From an uncultured Clostridia bacterium (GTDB taxonomy: Bacteria; Bacillota; Clostridia; Christensenellales; UBA3700), in NCBI GenBank assembly GCA_945872615.1, contig CAMBZZ010000001.1:90701-154700 (forward strand): a DNA stretch of 64,000 bases, in the 5' to 3' direction. The notes beneath the pieces were generated by a model. That model saw only the letters and a list, made by a program, of their open reading frames with translations, did no database searches and was not told the DNA's origin. This document shows positions 8,510 through 45,585 of this stretch, in pieces (position 1 is the first letter of the stretch; every line of letters begins with the position of its first letter). The position numbers and the translations under genes were made by a program.

Positions 8510-9583
8510 ATGAAAAATAAAGTTATCTCGAGCATTATTTTACTTTTAATTTGTTTGTCAATTATTTTTTTTAATTGTCAGATAATCGCCGAAGAAAATC
8601 CACAATCCTATATTTTAGAATATGCCGAAGAGTTTGTGAAAGGTTATGATTTAGAAGTTGCTGCCATAATACCTATTTACGATTTATATAATAATATTAT
8701 ACGGTATTGCGTTACATACAATAAAGATTCAAAAGAATTTGGTTATATTATTTTAGATAGTATTATCTCAAAAGGAAAAGCCCAACTAATAGAGTTTGCT
8801 TTTAATTGCAATAGTATAATTAAACCTAATAGAAAAAATGTATTAATTAACATAATGGAATATGGACAACAACGAGGTGAATTTATCGAAGTGGGTAATA
8901 GAGCGTTTTATTTATCTATGCTAAAAAAATATTTAGCAAACGATTCTGCGAATAGTATTTATGATGGCTACTTGGATATTGACATTAATTTAAATGATAT
9001 TTTAAATGGGCAATTGCAATTAGTTCCATATGCATTTACATTTAGACCATTTATTCAGGAGGACTTAGCCACAACATCACAAATAGATGATGGAATTTGC
9101 GGAGCAACTACCGCTATGAATGTATTGAAATATTATTATGATTCAGGTGAGGAGAAATATGACGACCTTTTCTATCAAAATGCTGACTATTCAATAAATG
9201 TAAATCAAACATATAATATTTTGAGATCATATCAATCTTCTTCTAATCCTTATAATATAGAAGATCAAGATAAAAGAAAAACTGCACTCAATAATTATAT
9301 TAAGAATAAAACCACTCTTAATGTTACAATAGTTAAATATTTATTTACAACTTGGACGTTTTTTTACAATGACATAAAAAATGGAAAATTAGTTGATGTT
9401 AGATATTCATATATGGATGCAGGACATGCAGTGTTAGCAATCGGTGCAGCAGTAGTCAAACCCGATATTTATCCTTTTGGCACAAAATTTTTATGTGTTG
9501 CAGATACTTGGAATTATAATGTTAGATGGTTGAATTATGATTATCACGATAATGTTAAAGGAATGAGTATTAATGTCTATTAA
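8510..9583 (+). CDS. Secreted papain-fold cysteine peptidase, C39-like (Peptidase_C39_2-like)
   Basis: 357 aa with an N-terminal signal/TM segment (KVISSIILLLICLSIIFF). Candidate catalytic Cys in DDGICGATTAMNVLKYYY, His in DAGHAVLAIGAAVV, and Asp/Asn in VADTWN. The gene is strongly AT-rich compared with its neighbours. Confidence 0.55.
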   Translation: MKNKVISSIILLLICLSIIFFNCQIIAEENPQSYILEYAEEFVKGYDLEVAAIIPIYDLYNNIIRYCVTYNKDSKEFGYIILDSIISKGKAQLIEFAFNCNSIIKPNRKNVLINIMEYGQQRGEFIEVGNRAFYLSMLKKYLANDSANSIYDGYLDIDINLNDILNGQLQLVPYAFTFRPFIQEDLATTSQIDDGICGATTAMNVLKYYYDSGEEKYDDLFYQNADYSINVNQTYNILRSYQSSSNPYNIEDQDKRKTALNNYIKNKTTLNVTIVKYLFTTWTFFYNDIKNGKLVDVRYSYMDAGHAVLAIGAAVVKPDIYPFGTKFLCVADTWNYNVRWLNYDYHDNVKGMSINVY

Positions 9584-9615
9584 ATTAGTATAAAAAATAT
9601 AGAGGTATATTTATT

Positions 9616-10032
9616 ATGAGAAAGGAAATGATAATTATTTGTATTCTATTTATAATATTAATAGTATTGGCGAGCATATTAATTTACAATGTAGCAACCC
9701 ACCCCCCAATCGACAAAATAGTAGAGTTGGACGGCATAGAAAAAGTGCAAGTCACCATTTCTTCTTGTTCCCCCAACGATAATATCCAATTCCAACTTTC
9801 TTCTAACGACGTCCAACTATTCGTTGCAATATTGCAATCTAGCCAAGTCAAAGCGTGTGGCAATCCTCACCTTGACGGTGGTGTCTACCGTATCAACCTC
9901 ATAGGCGCGCAAAAGGAACAATCCATCTCCATTTTAGGTCAATATATGATACTCGGCGGCAAATACTACCGCATCGGGGACGCTGCCCACACGTTGCTCA
10001 GTTCTTGCCTACAAGACATGCTTGCGCAATAA
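9616..10032 (+). CDS. Hypothetical membrane-anchored protein, paralog 1
   Basis: 138 aa with an AGAGG RBS and one N-terminal TM helix. The C-terminal two-thirds are identical to the ORF at 10605-11021. Confidence 0.7.
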   Translation: MRKEMIIICILFIILIVLASILIYNVATHPPIDKIVELDGIEKVQVTISSCSPNDNIQFQLSSNDVQLFVAILQSSQVKACGNPHLDGGVYRINLIGAQKEQSISILGQYMILGGKYYRIGDAAHTLLSSCLQDMLAQ

Positions 10033-10094
10033 TCGCACAAATCCAACGTCATTACTTTTACGTCATGCGGTGTATCGTAGACAATAGTTGTGGC

Positions 10095-10432
10095 GTCATT
10101 GTGCTGTGTACGTTTAGCATTAGCAAAGATATTACTTGCAATACTGTGGCAATCTCGTGTATCTTGTCATTCCGAGGACATTTATGTCCGTGGGAATCTC
10201 ATCCCTAGGGGATTATTCCAATCTCTCCTCCTTCTACTCGCACCTTTGCCGTCAAAAGGTTGTATGTCATTCCGCTGTGTACGTTTTGCATTAGCAAAGG
10301 CTATAAATAGCCACGGCAATCTCAATCCTATTAAATTCCTCCTTCGTGCAAATTAAGGTGGCGTGGCTATGCCGAGACGGAGAGATTGCTTATGTCATTG
10401 TGAGCGAGCAAGGCAAGTTTGGCTCTCTCAAC
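10095..10432 (+). repeat. Hairpin-repeat array A (5 units of the GTCATT...AATCTC family and associated modules)
   Basis: Units at 10095-10156, 10166-10201, 10266-10324, 10338-10389 and 10394-10432. Inner palindromes are GGACATttATGTCC (10176-10189) and GGCTATaaATAGCC (10299-10312). Confidence 0.85.
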
Positions 10433-10604
10433 ACCCCCTCCCCAAAGCAGTAGAATATGATACGATAAATCAAAAAAATAAAAAATAATATTGCTGTAAC
10501 AAAATGACGATTTTTTGTACCTTTATAGTAGAAAGAGTAATAATCAAAACGAATAATCAAAGTAATATGAAAACGAAATAATACAATTCGCGAGGTATCT
10601 TATT

Positions 10605-11021
10605 ATGAAAAAATCAACCGTTATCGTTAGTCTTTTGGCAATAGTTACGATAGTTTTGGCAAGTATATTGCTATACGGCGTCGCAACCCACCCCCCAATC
10701 GACAAACTAGTAGAGTTGGACGGCATAGAAAAAGTGCAAGTCACCCTTTTTTCTTGTTCCCCCGACGATAATATCCAATTCCAACTTTCTTCTACCGACG
10801 TCCAACTATTCGTTGCAATATTGCAATCTAGCCAAGTCAAAGCGTGTGGCAATCCTCACCTTGACGGTGGTGTCTACCGTATCAACCTCATAGGCGCGCA
10901 AAAGGAACAATCCATCTCCATTTTAGGTCAATATATGATACTCGGCGGCAAATACTACCGCATCGGGGACGCTGCCCACACGTTGCTCAGTTCTTGCCTA
11001 CAAGACATGCTTGCGCAATAA
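10605..11021 (+). CDS. Hypothetical membrane-anchored protein, paralog 2
   Basis: 138 aa with a GAGGT RBS and an N-terminal TM helix. Paralog of the ORF at 9616-10032. Confidence 0.7.
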   Translation: MKKSTVIVSLLAIVTIVLASILLYGVATHPPIDKLVELDGIEKVQVTLFSCSPDDNIQFQLSSTDVQLFVAILQSSQVKACGNPHLDGGVYRINLIGAQKEQSISILGQYMILGGKYYRIGDAAHTLLSSCLQDMLAQ

Positions 11022-11083
11022 TCGCACAAATCCAACGTCATTACTTTTACGTCATGCGGTGTATCGTAGACAATAGTTGTGGC

Positions 11084-11552
11084 GTCATTGTGCTGTGTAC
11101 GTTTAGCATTAGCAAAGATATTACTTGCAATACTGTGGCAATCTCGTGTATCTTGTCATTCCGAGGACATTTATGTCCGTGGGAATCTCATCCCTAGGGG
11201 ATTATTCCAATCTCTCCTCCTTCTACTCGCACCTTTGCCGTCAAAAGGTTGTATGTCATTCCGCTGTGTATGTTTTGCATTAGCAAAGGCTATAAATAGC
11301 CGCGGCAATCTCAATCCATATAAAAAGCCGTCCCTGTGCAAGGGAAGGGGGACCACCGTAGGTGGTGGAAGGGTTGTCTTACTCGTACCTATGCCGTCAA
11401 AAAGAATTATGTCATTCCGAGCCTTACTCGTAAGGCGTGGGAATCTCAACCTTATAAAAAGCCTCCTTTGTGTAAAGGGAGGCGTCAACGCAGTTGATGG
11501 AGGGATTGCTTGTGTCATTGCGGTGGAGCGAAGCGGAACCCCACAATCTCAC
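11084..11552 (+). repeat. Hairpin-repeat array B (7 units; the first three duplicate array A)
   Basis: Units at 11084-11145, 11155-11190, 11255-11313, 11328-11377, 11410-11449, 11461-11510 and 11514-11552. Same terminal motifs as array A. Confidence 0.85.
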
Positions 11553-11554
11553 TC

Positions 11555-11590
11555 AAAAAAAATACCCATTCCAACAAGAATGGGCTTTTT
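11555..11590. terminator. Bidirectional intrinsic terminator
   Basis: Stem CCCATTC/GAATGGG with a 6-nt loop, flanked by an A-run (11555-11562) and a T-run (11586-11590). On the minus strand it lies directly downstream of the DUF1858-like gene. Confidence 0.7.
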
Positions 11591-12347: not shown

Positions 12348-13424
12348 TTACCCCGCAAAAAACCTATACGCTATATAAGCAAGTCCCAATATAACCGCAC
12401 CGACGAAGATGCAAAAGCTTGCAATTTTTGGTGCAGATTTTGGATATTTTCCCGTCACGACGCCCGTTCTACCATTGACGTAATCGTTGTACTGCTTTTT
12501 GTTGTAATGATAACTTACAAGCCAAATCGGCACGAATATGTACTTATACTTTTTGTCTGCGTAGGTCGGATTTATCTTGACGTAATCCAACACGTCATAG
12601 TTATACTTGCTTTTTACAACTTCTTGTAGGTCGTCGTTGATAACGCCCGTGGCTTTATTCCAACACTCGTCGAGTCCCGTGCTATATCTCTCGCCTTGAT
12701 AGCCCGCCAAAAATTGCGAATGATACCCGCAAGAGTTTTTAGAGTCGAAGCCTCCCATGCCGTAGAGGTCCTTTTGCTCTATCATTTTGCTAGCCTCTAT
12801 TTGAATATCGTCGTAGGCGCGAGCGACGAAACCGCTATCCACGTACCATCTCGTTTTTTGCACGGTACGCCTATTTTTTCCGCTACCCACGGTGACGTAA
12901 TAGTGCTGACCGTATCTAATGGTATAAGGCGTACTTGCTTTGCAATCGAAGGTAAAAACGGGCAAATAAATTCCGCTCACGTCCTCTTTTTTGTTGTTTT
13001 TCTTAAACTTACTCGGAGCAAAGAGTTTTTTCTTTATCCAAGTCTTAAAGTTTTGTACCGCCGTCTCTTTAGCAACGCCGAACGGCAGAATTCCCGTAGG
13101 CTTGAGCCCCGGCAACTCGTCGGCAGATACGACGTTGTTGGCACCGCAAAACGGACAATTACCCGTCATATCATACTCGTTGAGTACGGTGACGGCGCCA
13201 CAACTTTTACATTTTACGCACTTTACATCGCCCCACGTTTCAAAGCCTTGCTCGCTGTTGTCGTCGTAGGCAATCTCAATGGCGTTGCCTACCGCCTCTA
13301 GGTCGTATTCAGAAGAGCAATGGTCACACTTAAGTTTTTTACTCGTAGGGTCGTAGTGCAAAAAGTTTCCGCAACTCTTGCATTTATAGGTGCGTGAGGT
13401 TATCGTTTTATTCTCTTCTTCCAT
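12348..13424 (-). CDS. Double zinc-ribbon membrane protein, YdjG-like
   Basis: 358 aa with CKSCG...CDHCS and CKSCG...CPFCG ribbons and a C-terminal TM helix. Its ATG overlaps the upstream stop (TAATG). Confidence 0.55.
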   Translation of the reverse strand: MEEENKTITSRTYKCKSCGNFLHYDPTSKKLKCDHCSSEYDLEAVGNAIEIAYDDNSEQGFETWGDVKCVKCKSCGAVTVLNEYDMTGNCPFCGANNVVSADELPGLKPTGILPFGVAKETAVQNFKTWIKKKLFAPSKFKKNNKKEDVSGIYLPVFTFDCKASTPYTIRYGQHYYVTVGSGKNRRTVQKTRWYVDSGFVARAYDDIQIEASKMIEQKDLYGMGGFDSKNSCGYHSQFLAGYQGERYSTGLDECWNKATGVINDDLQEVVKSKYNYDVLDYVKINPTYADKKYKYIFVPIWLVSYHYNKKQYNDYVNGRTGVVTGKYPKSAPKIASFCIFVGAVILGLAYIAYRFFAG

Positions 13425-14548
13425 TACAGTTTTTCACCACATTCAGGGCAGAACTTTGCTCCCGCTTTGACGTCGGCGCCGCACTTAGGGCATTTTACGC
13501 TACCGAGGCTCGCGCCGCACTCAGGGCAAAACTTGGCACCCTTTTTGACTGCCGTTCCGCACTTAGGGCATTTTTGAGTGCTTTCCATACTCTTGCCGCA
13601 CTCAGGGCAGAACTTAGAGCCCTTTTTGACCTTAGCGCCGCAGTTAGGACAAGTATCCTTAGCTTCCACGTCGGCGGTGCCGTTTGCGATACTGCTCATA
13701 CCGTCGGCAAAAACCTTGCCCACGCCGAGACCCGCGCCGAGACCGATACCAGCGCCTGCCAATCCTCCAGGATTTTTTGCGGCGGATTTCATTGCCTCGA
13801 TACTCTCCATCTGAGCGTATCCTTGCATAGCTCCGTTCATCACGCCCACGGAGGTACGCTTATCCATCATCTTCTCCACTTCTTCAGGCAAGGAGAGATT
13901 TTCGATAAAGAGAGCCTTGATTTCTATACCGATTTTGTCAAACTCTTCTTGCAGTTTGACCTTAGCCATATCGGTGATTTCGTCGTAATGCATAGCAAGG
14001 TCGAGCGCAGCCACTTTAGACTCCGCGATGACGTTGCTAAGAGTAGACGTGATAATCTTTTTGAAGTATTCGTCAACGTTTTTGACGGTGAGCTCGCCCA
14101 TCGAGCCAAAGAGTTCGTTCATAGCTTGAGTAGGCGTACCCACGGCAAAAGAATAGGTACCGAAGCCTCTCACTCTAATCATTCCGAAATCGTTGTCTCT
14201 CATCATCACGGGGTTAGATGTGCCCCACTTGTTGTTGATAAACTGCTTGGTGGAGATAAAGTACACGTCACCCGTGTATGGGCTTTCCCAAGCATACTTC
14301 CAACTATTGAGCGAAGTAAGGATTGGGATATTGCGCACGTCGCTTAGTTCGTATGTACCGGGACCGAATACGTCGGCAAGTTTACCCTCTTGGATAAATA
14401 GAGCCTTTTGTCCCTCTCTCACCACAAGTTGAGATTTTTTCATAATCTCTTCTTTTCTCTCAAGCGGATACTTCCACACGATAGTATTAGGATTATCGTT
14501 TTCCCATTGTATTACTTTTCTAAATTGTCTTTTTAGCCATCCAGCCAT
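13424..14548 (-). CDS. SPFH/band-7 domain protein with three C-terminal zinc ribbons (YdjI / COG4260-like)
   Basis: 374 aa with an SPFH-like core and a Gly-rich linker. The C-terminus carries three copies of CP(N/K)CG-x10-CPECG. Confidence 0.7.
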   Translation of the reverse strand: MAGWLKRQFRKVIQWENDNPNTIVWKYPLERKEEIMKKSQLVVREGQKALFIQEGKLADVFGPGTYELSDVRNIPILTSLNSWKYAWESPYTGDVYFISTKQFINNKWGTSNPVMMRDNDFGMIRVRGFGTYSFAVGTPTQAMNELFGSMGELTVKNVDEYFKKIITSTLSNVIAESKVAALDLAMHYDEITDMAKVKLQEEFDKIGIEIKALFIENLSLPEEVEKMMDKRTSVGVMNGAMQGYAQMESIEAMKSAAKNPGGLAGAGIGLGAGLGVGKVFADGMSSIANGTADVEAKDTCPNCGAKVKKGSKFCPECGKSMESTQKCPKCGTAVKKGAKFCPECGASLGSVKCPKCGADVKAGAKFCPECGEKL

Positions 14549-14873: not shown

Positions 14874-14972
14874 ATGACTAAGAACAAGATGCAAAACAAG
14901 GCTACCAAAGGCTGCAAATGCAAAGCCGAAAGTACCGAAAAGAATTGCAAATGCACCAAAAGCAACGACTAA
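14874..14972 (+). CDS. Small Cys/Lys-rich peptide (32 aa), not in the ORF track
   Basis: AGGAGG at 14861-14866 lies 7 nt before the ATG. The product is MTKNKMQNKATKGCKCKAESTEKNCKCTKSND. A hairpin terminator follows at 15023-15060. Confidence 0.55.
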   Translation: MTKNKMQNKATKGCKCKAESTEKNCKCTKSND

Positions 14973-15022
14973 TGACGTTGCCTATATCGTCTAAATGACG
15001 ACTGACCACCTGATAAGTGGTA

Positions 15023-15060
15023 ATGAGGAGAGAAGACGACTTTTCTCCTCATTTTTATTT
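15023..15060 (+). terminator. Intrinsic terminator
   Basis: Stem ATGAGGAGAGAA/TTTTCTCCTCAT with a 6-nt loop, followed by TTTTATTT. Confidence 0.7.
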
Positions 15061-15075
15061 ATCTCGAAATATCAA

Positions 15076-15636
15076 CGCCCCACCTCGCACCTATTCCGTG
15101 AGAGTAACACAATATGTCGTAAGCAAAATAGGTGGCAAGACGGAGGGATAGTCCTATTACGTCATTGCGGTGGAGCGTAGCGTAACTTGGCAATCTCGTC
15201 ATCTTGTCATTCCGCTGTGTACATTTTGCGACAGCAAAGGACATTTATGTCCGTGGGAATCTCATCCCCCTTTGCAGCCTCCTTTGTGCAAAGGGAGGTG
15301 TCCGACGAAAGTCGGACGGAGGGATTGTTTTTTCATTGCGTTGCGTACGTTTTACATTTGCAAAGTGAGTAAAGCGACTGTGGCAATCTCAAGTAGTAAT
15401 GTCATTGCGAAGCCGTTAGGCTGTGGCAATCTCAATCAACAATATCATTGCCCCCAGTGCATTTTGCGTTAGCAAAGTAAGCAAAGCGAACGCGGCAATC
15501 TCAACCGCTTAAAAGCCGCCCCTGTGCAAGGGGAGGGGGACCACTGTAGGCGGTGGAAGGGTTGTCCACTTTTGTCATTACGGTGGAGCGTAACATTGTT
15601 ATGTCATTCCGTTGTGTACATTGGGAATCTCTATCC
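15076..15636 (+). repeat. Hairpin-repeat array C (about 10 units, the largest array)
   Basis: Class-1 units at 15161-15197, 15207-15264, 15333-15391, 15400-15434, 15444-15504, 15574-15593 (truncated) and 15603-15632. Class-2 units at 15277-15327 and 15515-15565. Confidence 0.85.
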
Positions 15637-15875
15637 TATTAAAAAGCCCCCTCTCACCATATCCAATTACGACAATTTCCCTTATACTCTAAGTTTTATC
15701 GCCAAAAATCAACAAAAAAGATTAAAAAAGACCTAGTTACCAAAAATAATATAACCAACGAGAAAGCAAAATAGTAAAAGAAGAGCGCAACCTTTTGGAT
15801 TGCGCAGTTCTTTATATAAGGGGGAAAATTATGAGTGATTTTGTCGGATAGGTTTCTTTTCCTATCGTCAAGGAC

Positions 15876-40511: not shown

Positions 40512-40587
<76 letters not shown>

Positions 40588-44165: not shown

Positions 44166-44267
44166 AACCTCTCCATTGATAAATAAATTATAGCACAAGT
44201 ATTGATATGGTGTAAAGAGGTAATTGTTGACAGATTTAGTCGTACTCTCATGGATAGAATAAAACAC

Positions 44268-44432
44268 AATCCCCCACCCGACAAAGTCGGGAGCCCCCTT
44301 TGCACAAAGGGGCCTTTTTATAATGATGAGATTCCCACGCTCGCTTTGCTCGCTCTGAATGACAAACTTCTTGGTTGTCACTCCACGGCAATGACATACA
44401 ACCCTTTGACGGCAGAGATGCGAGCAAGACTA
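44268..44432 (-). repeat. Hairpin-repeat array D (same family, inverted orientation)
   Basis: Reverse complements of class-2 (44268-44314), class-1 (44328-44363), truncated class-1 (44376-44395) and the CTCGCA...GCCGTCAAAGGGTTGTAT module (44393-44432). Confidence 0.8.
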
Positions 44433-44433
44433 G

Positions 44434-44459: not shown

Positions 44460-44652
44460 CAATTTGTTATTAGTTGCAATGGTGCTGCTCTCTCGCGGTG
44501 TAGATGCGAGTTAGGCGCGAAGAGCGAGGATTGGGCGACAGGAGCATACTCCTTGTATGTGACTAAGCACAACCGCAAGTTCGACAAAGCATAACGACGC
44601 ACATCCGCCACGAGAGCGACACAGTATTTCGAAGTATATATACCGTGAGAAA

Positions 44653-45585
44653 TTAGTCGGAGAAGAGAGGAGTAGAAAGATACCTATCCCCACTATCCGG
44701 CAACAACACTACGATATTTTTGCCGGCGTATTCGTCTTGCTTGGCTAGTTGAATTGCCGCTGCCAAGGCTGCGCCAGACGAGATGCCAACCAACACGCCC
44801 TCGGTGGAGGCGATGAGTTTGCCCTTTTCGAAGGCTTCTTCGTTGGATATGGCGATGATTTGGTCATATATGGTCGTATCGAGCACTTTTGGCACGAAGC
44901 CCGCTCCGATGCCTTGTATCTTGTGCGCTCCCGCTACGCCCGTGGATAGGACTGCCGAAGTTGCAGGCTCTACCGCTACGACTTTGACGGAAGGCTTCTT
45001 GGATTTGAGGTATTGTCCTACGCCCGTGACCGTTCCGCCCGTGCCTACGCCCGCAACGAATACGTCGACTTCTCCGTCGGTGTCTTCGAAAATTTCGACG
45101 CCCGTGCTAGTAAAGTGAGCCTTTGGATTGGCGGGGTTATCAAACTGCGAAGGAACGAAACTACCCTCTATCGTCTCGGCGAGTTGGTTTGCCTTTTCGA
45201 TTGCACCCTTCATACCCTTGGAGCCGTCGCTAAGGACGATTTCCGCGCCGTAAGCCTTGATAAGTTGACGGCGTTCTACCGACATGGTCTCGGGCATAAC
45301 TATAATAACTCTATAGCCTCTTGCCGTGCCTACCGCAGCTAGTCCGATACCCGTATTGCCAGACGTCGGTTCGATAATCGTGCTACCTGTATTGAGTTTT
45401 CCGCTCTTTTCCGCCTCGGTTATCATTGCCAAAGCGACCCTATCTTTGACCGAACCCGACAAGTTGAAGTATTCGAGTTTGGCAATGATTTTGCCCTTGA
45501 GCCCCAACTTTTGCTCCAACTTATTAAGTCTTAGAAGTGGGGTTTTGCCGATAAGGCTATCTGCCGATTGATATATTGCACTCAT
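44653..45585 (-). CDS. cysK: Cysteine synthase A (O-acetylserine sulfhydrylase)
   Basis: 310 aa with the PLP-lysine motif (NLSGSVKDR) and the TSGNTG and GTGGT loops. Confidence 0.9.
   Translation of the reverse strand: MSAIYQSADSLIGKTPLLRLNKLEQKLGLKGKIIAKLEYFNLSGSVKDRVALAMITEAEKSGKLNTGSTIIEPTSGNTGIGLAAVGTARGYRVIIVMPETMSVERRQLIKAYGAEIVLSDGSKGMKGAIEKANQLAETIEGSFVPSQFDNPANPKAHFTSTGVEIFEDTDGEVDVFVAGVGTGGTVTGVGQYLKSKKPSVKVVAVEPATSAVLSTGVAGAHKIQGIGAGFVPKVLDTTIYDQIIAISNEEAFEKGKLIASTEGVLVGISSGAALAAAIQLAKQDEYAGKNIVVLLPDSGDRYLSTPLFSD

Follow-up and report, generated by a model that had tools for sequence, protein, structure and literature searches.

Hairpin repeat arrays of a gut Christensenellales genome contain probable split-stem members of the CGTC-tagged REP/Ssn-related motif family

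Repetitive extragenic palindromes (REPs) with a CGTC or TGTC tag form a superfamily that is characterized by the tag, by stems that start with AT, and by a short tail; it includes dRS3 of Neisseria and RPE-4 and RPE-6 of Rickettsia and "apparently lacks a dedicated transposase" (Di Nocera, De Gregorio, and Rocco, BMC Genomics 2013; PMC3733652). About half of the dRS3 copies are longer, oriented Neisseria Transformation Sequence (NTS) motifs, and NTS-like Ssn-related motifs (SRMs) flank homologs of SsnA, a 94-aa single-domain GIY-YIG protein (cd10448), across phyla (Chenal et al., Nat Commun 2025; PMC11893778). SsnA binds the hairpin solely as single-stranded DNA and on one strand, binds neither double-stranded DNA nor RNA, and has its cut site a few nucleotides upstream; cleavage is set by the three bases (GTC) 5′ of the palindrome and binding by the C 3′ of it, and the loop can be extended and its identity has no effect (PMC11893778). 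In Neisseria meningitidis, the Ssn system restricts transforming DNA, and in Neisseria its sites surround variable surface genes (PMC11893778). Here, we analyze the hairpin repeat arrays in 64,000 nucleotides of contig CAMBZZ010000001.1 from an uncultured Clostridia bacterium of the order Christensenellales (the whole stretch is referred to as the window), in which an earlier note, made from the sequence alone, had distinguished three classes of repeat modules. With a probability of roughly 75%, class 1 belongs to the CGTC/TGTC-tagged REP superfamily; its units would thus be Ssn-related motifs that act at the DNA level as hairpins when single stranded, present here as a split-stem variant within mosaic arrays.

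The two terminal motifs of class 1 are strongly overrepresented in the window. GTCATTSYG occurs 16 times versus 1.7 expected and GGSAATCTC 18 times versus 0.8 expected, counts that were never reached in shuffled sequence, and both cluster on the plus strand at 10095-10430 and 11084-11552. The earlier note had placed its arrays at these coordinates but missed two others, at 15084-15631 (+) and 44253-44433 (−); together, the four arrays hold approximately 18 class 1 units, 6 class 2 units, and 4 to 5 class 3 units. The class 1 consensus is (T/C)GTC-ATTSC-GA-[variable hairpin]-GYG-GSAAT-CTC, and the corresponding architecture is a split stem, in which a 5-bp ATTSC/GSAAT stem is separated by a GA/GYG internal loop from a hypervariable inner hairpin. 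The units are 29 to 62 nt long and include the palindromes GGACATTTATGTCC (10176-10189) and GGCTATAAATAGCC (10299-10312), both quoted correctly in the earlier note. The base at position −1 is T or C and is followed by GTC in all intact units, by a stem that starts with AT, and by a C after the palindrome, and every unit ends with AAT-C-T-C. Both papers define the family by such features, and class 1, which also has the potential to form hairpins, can be placed in it; judged by its sequence, class 1 is a new and structurally variant member of this family, whose partner enzyme is known. The earlier note had considered such repeats to be without assigned function and had itself named a match to a known family with a known role as grounds for abandoning that view. 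Such a family has now been found (PMC3733652, PMC11893778).

The outer stem covaries. Among candidate units from loci that were picked independently of the repeat, 268/416 were complementary at the two variable positions of the outer stem, compared with a mean of 76 and a maximum of 100 after permutation, and four pair types were seen at the covarying positions, which bears out the complementarity of the unit ends that had been noticed before. The inner hairpin is 80% Watson-Crick paired across the family versus 30% in shuffled sequences, and the stems contain 30 G-T pairs versus 17 A-C pairs. C-GNA-G triloops predominate, with 77 of the 229 loops (GAA, 38; GCA, 23; GTA, 12; GGA, 4), whereas GNRA loops are few and UUCG loops were not seen among them. 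Triloops of the d(GCGAAGC) type form a classic, very stable DNA mini-hairpin, and the prevalence of GNA triloops thus points to a function in single-stranded DNA. When seven units of the window were folded with nearest-neighbor DNA parameters and compared to shuffled sequences, the short units formed the outer 5-bp stem, the internal loop, and the inner hairpin (z-scores of −2.2 to −3.0).

A frequent inner sequence, GGAGCGAAGCGAC or GCGTAGC, is present at 11514-11550 and 15161-15197 of the window and in many units of other loci. It consists of tandem G-A mismatches around a GCGAAGC-type mini-hairpin and is scored as unstructured by nearest-neighbor folding.

Open reading frames (ORFs) bracketed by inverted units include one for a GIY-YIG protein of approximately 95 aa. 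A profile search of 2.1 Mb of unit-containing loci returned four such genes, each located ≤70 nt from a unit. The association was evaluated on 80 metagenome loci that were anchored on the GIY-YIG protein, independent of the repeat. A unit was present ≤150 bp downstream of the nuclease gene in 66/79 loci and upstream of it in 38/71. Units occurred at 8.7 per kb within the first 100 bp downstream of the gene and at 5.1 per kb within the 100 bp immediately upstream of it, a 30- to 50-fold enrichment over the 0.16 per kb found more than 500 bp from the gene; the background of the unit detector was approximately 0.02 per kb on simulated sequence. Upstream units were mostly oriented as the gene (61:23) and downstream units mostly inverted (99:30), and the nuclease gene is therefore bracketed by units whose GTCAT ends point outward. 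The −1 base of the units beside nuclease genes was T in 212, C in 47, G in 5, and A in 4. Split-stem ATTGC units of the type found in the window bracket the nuclease gene in an Oscillospiraceae metagenome-assembled genome (MAG; L143), in a Phycisphaerae MAG (L225), and at loci L154, L219, and L270. This link to the nuclease, which was found here without use of the published association, reproduces that association (PMC11893778). The 8,000 matches listed in a search for the nuclease family were mostly from Oscillospiraceae; NCBIfam contained no model for the nuclease, and the PDB yielded only distant UPF0213 proteins. All-versus-all clustering of the ORFs near class 1 units returned phage structural proteins and spurious high-GC frames, with no obvious partner; the nuclease came to light only among the ORFs bracketed by inverted units.

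The identity of the bracketed gene also bears on whether the units are classical REPs or REPINs mobilized by a REP-associated tyrosine transposase (RAYT), that is, a Y1 HUH transposase of the IS200/IS605 type. The architecture of short tag, hairpin, inverted pairs, and mosaic arrays is the same, and inverted tail-to-tail pairs are frequent in other taxa (90 pairs). However, the tag is (T/C)GTC rather than GTAG, the gene actually bracketed by units encodes the GIY-YIG nuclease, and phmmer detected no homolog of the IS608/IS200 TnpA in the 2.1 Mb of unit-containing loci, with approximate queries that distant RAYTs could escape. No dedicated transposase was found for the CGTC-tagged REPs either (PMC3733652), and we regard mobilization by a RAYT as extremely improbable.

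The conserved termini extend well beyond the window. A broad class 1 scan of IMG/VR yielded at least 120 stretches, most of which contain canonical units whose termini are shared and whose inner hairpins are unrelated, and a stricter pattern, scanned in one genome per GTDB species, likewise yielded at least 120 stretches. The class 1 termini are present in more than 25 phyla, including groups of the Candidate Phyla Radiation, Planctomycetota, Chloroflexota, Bacteroidota, Pseudomonadota, and Bacillota, and two other Christensenellales MAGs are among the matches listed. The broader set can be written as GTC-AT(T/C)NN...NN(A/G)AT-C(T/C), and its subfamilies ATTGC, ATTCC, ATTCT, ATTTC, and ATCCTGA are found together in one contig. 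Across taxa, pairs of units are inverted tail to tail in 90 cases, in the same orientation in 83, and head to head in 22, according to the convention used here. A very widespread split-stem subfamily, with members in more than 25 phyla and many contigs of phage-like character, has been overlooked by the published search motif.

That motif, HGTCWYN(0-2)YYVSBRHN(0-5)WNVSBRGN(0-2)RNCYNB, matches 10 of the 80 nuclease-anchored loci, although most of these carry tagged hairpins, indicating that it is a narrow operational filter and not a family boundary. As the split-stem subfamily is missed by the motif, the published site counts are likely to be underestimates. With class 1, the Ssn motif family extends to a gut Christensenellales lineage, whose arrays can be read as groups of sites that are probably cut by a nuclease acting on one strand of single-stranded DNA.

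The class 1 units resemble SRMs and NTSs in being oriented 20- to 50-nt hairpins that follow a (C/T)GTC, open their stem with AT, are immediately followed by a C, and have a variable or extendable loop, as well as in the occurrence in many phyla and the clusters around variable genes; at the level of the family and of the split-stem subfamily, the nuclease gene bracketed by inverted units is shared as well. They differ in the 5-bp outer stem, the conserved GA/GYG internal loop, and the hypervariable inner hairpin; moreover, the host of the window is a Gram-positive member of the Clostridia, and its units are arranged head to tail, interleaved with other repeat families, with no ssnA nearby. 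With the CGTC-tagged REPs they share the terminal CGTC/TGTC tag, the A and T with which the stem opens, the short unpaired tail, the coexistence of several subfamilies per genome, and the large clusters in some taxa. The REPs described in 2013 have an 8- to 9-bp stem, a loop of 4 to 5 nt, and mostly a CCA tail and are found mainly in Alphaproteobacteria, whereas the window has a split stem and a CTC tail and belongs to the Bacillota. As intergenic, strain-polymorphic arrays of tagged palindromes that alternate with other modules beside variable genes, the arrays are reminiscent of the Neisseria intergenic mosaic elements (NIMEs) and of the bacterial interspersed mosaic elements (BIMEs) of Escherichia coli. 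BIMEs, however, consist of GTAG REPs in alternating orientation and depend on a Y1 transposase (RAYT), unlike the arrays of the window, and to our knowledge, neither class 2 nor the 125-nt core described below is related to the RS elements that serve as filler modules in NIMEs. The attC sites of integrons are similar in one respect: they, too, work as hairpins of single-stranded DNA, in which the outer boxes are conserved, an internal region is unpaired, and the terminal structure varies between a triloop and a large branched insert. Their RYYYAAC/GTTRRRY consensus, tyrosine integrase, and intervening gene cassettes are not present here, and both an integron attC reading and a K-turn or ribozyme reading were rejected on consensus and architecture.

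Under the proposed assignment, an SsnA-type nuclease of approximately 95 aa would bind the hairpin on one strand and nick a few nucleotides upstream, the cleavage itself being known from the literature. The nuclease gene, bracketed by two inverted units, would have a layout like that of an insertion sequence, and solitary units and arrays elsewhere in the genome would be its dispersed target sites. Strung together with class 2 and the 125-nt core, class 1 units make up mosaic arrays like NIMEs or BIMEs, which are located beside strain-variable accessory genes and would change by unequal recombination between units and by changes in tandem copy number. By analogy with the characterized system, we infer that the units may be cut by a cognate Ssn in this organism, which would restrict incoming single-stranded DNA or modulate recombination around the flanked genes. 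The suggestion of the earlier note that the repeats might serve protein binding or recombination was a reasonable guess.

Several results weigh against the assignment. Three of the seven folded units lacked a good fold, and neither the 62-nt unit nor the GGTGGAGCG(A/T)AGCG units folded beyond shuffled sequences. The published SRM motif has 0 matches in the window, compared with 0.18 expected. Most CGTC-tagged REPs are head-to-head dimers, whereas the class 1 units are all head to tail within each array of the window. Membership of the GIY-YIG family in cd10448 was not confirmed; the family was recognized by Pfam PF01541, a length of 94 to 101 aa, and the flanking units. A hidden Markov model of 117 family members detected no Ssn-like ORF or remnant at an E value of ≤10 in the 64-kb window, in the approximately 20 kb surrounding the syntenic locus of each relative, or in two other Christensenellales contigs, and a cognate nuclease in this genome is therefore putative. 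Finally, the orientation of all four arrays is that of the gene immediately upstream, and array A (11084-11552) is located between the stop codon of a paralogous gene and a bidirectional terminator, i.e., in a 3′ untranslated region (UTR); this co-orientation and position leave room for an additional effect of the arrays at the RNA level.

The last two observations also speak for units that work as structured RNA (3′ UTR stabilizers, processing sites, or attenuators) transcribed with the upstream gene, a role that the earlier note had put forward. Many REPs are located downstream of genes and are plausibly transcribed (PMC3733652), and the few G-T stem pairs, 30 versus 17 A-C pairs, could be read in the same way. 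Nevertheless, 512 intergenic or ORF-embedded units showed no preferred orientation with respect to their neighboring genes (105 sense, 90 antisense, 70 convergent, and 62 divergent), and in the phage-like contig L100, 28/28 units are antisense to the genes. Array B (15084-15631) is located between convergent terminators, the loops are GNA triloops of the DNA type rather than GNRA or UUCG, and SsnA does not bind RNA (PMC11893778). No Rfam family was matched even at an E value of ≤10: the searches with the window, the arrays, the core, and three related loci (E value of ≤10 or ≤1) returned nothing credible, and the sole match above the gathering score was a tRNA at 40512-40584. A structured-RNA role is therefore considered very unlikely. 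Literature searches for the unit termini, the translated peptides, class 2, and the core as sequence strings returned only unrelated primer sequences.

In some phage-like contigs, a tagged hairpin is present in nearly every intergenic gap, on a single strand and antisense to the genes. Examples include L100 (28 units, all plus), L087 (19 units, all minus), and L049, with four to five subfamilies mixed per contig. GC skew was compared between loci L001 to L120 and L134 to L253, and the result is not part of the explanation offered here. In viral contigs, the GTCAT strand is the C-rich strand (186:59 units; 61:16 loci). Loci in bacterial genomes show no such bias (125:123), and all four arrays of the window are on the locally C-rich strand.

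The arrays of the window are mosaics of class 1 units and other modules. Array A0 (10095-10430, +), behind the first copy of the paralogous gene (9616-10032), comprises class 1 units at 10095-10156, 10166-10200, and 10266-10323, a truncated unit at 10394-10430, a class 3 module at 10237-10265, and a degenerate class 2 unit at approximately 10337-10390. Array A (11084-11552, +), behind the second copy (10605-11021), comprises class 1 units at 11084-11145, 11155-11189, 11255-11312, 11411-11447, and 11514-11550, class 3 modules at 11226-11254 and 11382-11410, and class 2 units at 11326-11377 and 11460-11509, and is closed by the bidirectional terminator at 11564-11585. Array B begins with a remnant made up of the 3′ end of the core and a class 2 3′ arm (15084-15150) and continues with class 1 units at 15161-15197, 15206-15263, 15401-15433, and 15603-15631, two with variant tags at 15332-15390 (TTCATT) and 15444-15502 (ATCATT), a truncated one at 15574-15597, and class 2 units at 15276-15328 and 15514-15565; all are on the plus strand, between the convergent terminators at 15022-15053 (+) and 15785-15805 (−). 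Array C (44253-44433, −), downstream of cysK (44653-45585, −), contains a class 1 unit at 44328-44363, a truncated one at 44364-44395, a class 3 module at 44396-44424, and a class 2 unit at approximately 44253-44312. The only full copy of the 125-nt rod-like core hairpin in the window is at 44491-44615 (−). Since the units differ in sequence and length (29 to 62 nt) and are parted by conserved 5- to 10-nt linkers or by other repeat modules, a CRISPR array was rejected, in agreement with the earlier note's description of modular hairpins.

Proteins identical to the L3 protein and the aminotransferase encoded in the window carry annotations that assign them to Christensenellales/Eubacteriales MAGs. 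The arrays are situated just upstream of the S10 ribosomal operon, amid small strain-variable genes, namely, that of the membrane-anchored 138-aa paralog, one of 357 aa, and a Flg_new/DUF6273 gene of 410 aa. Between the S10 operon and a DUF1858 gene, the strains differ in gene content, as seen from window positions 8510-11021 in comparison with loci L124 to L133. The window, L125, and L129 have the 357-aa gene, which L124 and L126 to L128 lack; the 410-aa gene is present in one relative, L125, where repeat modules flank it. A 989-bp tandem duplication in the window (9611-10599 and 10600-11588, +) includes the 138-aa paralog and the array head, and the relatives carry a single paralog copy without it. 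Arrays A0 and A, being largely one duplication, are thus not independent copies. An exact-protein lookup of the 138-aa paralog gave no match. The first 300 nt of the duplication copies are 88% identical, and their 3′ part and the array start are nearly identical, which suggests a recent duplication or gene conversion, possibly repeat mediated.

Array A itself turns over between strains by gain and loss of whole units. Three relatives have a single unit and an array of 181 bp, and the array measures 489 bp in L126, 589 bp in the window, and 751 bp in L128. In every strain compared, the first unit has the same 5′ end and the last unit the same 3′ end. L126 has a clean 171-nt deletion between 34-nt 5′ modules common to two units, and a unit with its 10-nt linker is present in one to four copies, depending on the strain. 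Insertions and deletions of entire units between close strains agree with the earlier judgment that the arrays are noncoding. The class 1 units nevertheless yield spurious ORFs, and masking them in annotation is advisable. The array changes are compatible with unequal recombination or slippage; mobility driven by the nuclease is neither required nor excluded by them.

The same changes bear on a further explanation, according to which the arrays are orphan relics whose nuclease was lost or was never present (e.g., because the units arrived by horizontal transfer or with phage) and which persist only as recombination-prone junk altered by slippage and unequal crossing over. Homologous recombination or tandem duplication can explain every observed strain difference, some units are truncated or have degenerate tags (e.g., TTCATT, ATCATT, and the copy at 10394-10430), and no Ssn-like gene was found in the Christensenellales sequences searched; moreover, in the published survey, an SsnA homolog is missing from 19% of the genomes that have more than 200 SRMs (PMC11893778). 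On the other hand, the nuclease search covered a small fraction of the genome, most units have intact termini that are conserved even where the strains otherwise differ, and the units are multicopy in three Christensenellales species representatives. A relic origin is, on balance, rather unlikely.

Class 2 units have the form (A/T)AG-CCTCCCTTGTGYAAAGGGAGG-TGG-[variable hairpin, often C-GNA-G]-NCGGAGGGRTTG, with arms CCTCCC..GGGAGG-TGG-[hypervariable hairpin]-CGGAGGGRTTG, and fold as two tandem hairpins with a G-rich tail (z-scores of −2.6 to −4.3). They were found in 117 IMG/VR stretches compared with approximately 3 expected by our own estimate (loci L334 to L446 and also L025, L060, L080, and L088). 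Class 1 units are just approximately threefold enriched at class-2-anchored loci, and 1 Mb of class-2-anchored viral loci contained neither a GIY-YIG gene nor a recurrent small neighboring ORF. Class 2 had no match in Rfam and none by sequence string in the literature. Class 2 is a separate, undescribed repeat family, and with its conserved arms and variable hairpin, the same design as that of class 1, it is a candidate for follow-up. A related inverse module, CAAYCCCTCAGTC-[hairpin]-GACAGCTCCCC..GGGGAGC, often adjoins class 2.

Class 3, in contrast to its description as a module of its own in the earlier note, is a fragment. Each of the copies at 10237-10265, 11226-11254, 11382-11410, and 44396-44424 (−) does directly abut a class 1 unit, as the note had stated. 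In relatives, however, an element of approximately 125 nt, TCTCACGGC...GCCGTGAGA, takes the place of the second hairpin of class 2, and comparison of strains identifies class 3 (CTCGCACCTTTGCCGT...) as the 3′ end of this nested element. The closing stem of the element is the commonest second-hairpin stem of class 2 elsewhere, CACGGC-GTA-GCCGTG. The element folds as a long rod, with compensatory changes at 16/38 pairs among eight sequences, and nhmmer matches to this 125-nt core were confined to Christensenellales loci. The arrays might then be hubs for several single-stranded DNA hairpin repeat systems rather than for Ssn alone. A second, undescribed structure-specific DNA enzyme could have its recognition site and nested cargo in class 2 and the core together, or Ssn-type GIY-YIG proteins could be true single-stranded DNA transposases that copy modules into each other's loops and linkers. 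We consider this broader interpretation speculative and unlikely.

Minor observations were made on the flanks of the arrays. A 32-aa Lys/Cys-rich ORF at 14875-14973 (+), MTKNKMQNKATKGCKCKAESTEKNCKCTKSND, precedes the strong terminator at 15022-15053; two relatives have it called as a gene, and six relatives are identical over its first 40 nt. At 13437-13655 (−), inside the ORF at 13424-14548, three 60-nt direct repeats that are 75 to 80% identical encode tandem zinc-ribbon modules at the C terminus of an SPFH/Band-7 protein; they are coding and have no relationship to the hairpin arrays. Between array A and the DUF1858 gene, the bidirectional terminator at 11564-11585 has the loop CCATTCCAACAAGAATGG in the window and CCATTCTTGTTGGAATGG in L126 and L128, with an identical stem, a difference that looks like a hairpin-loop inversion.

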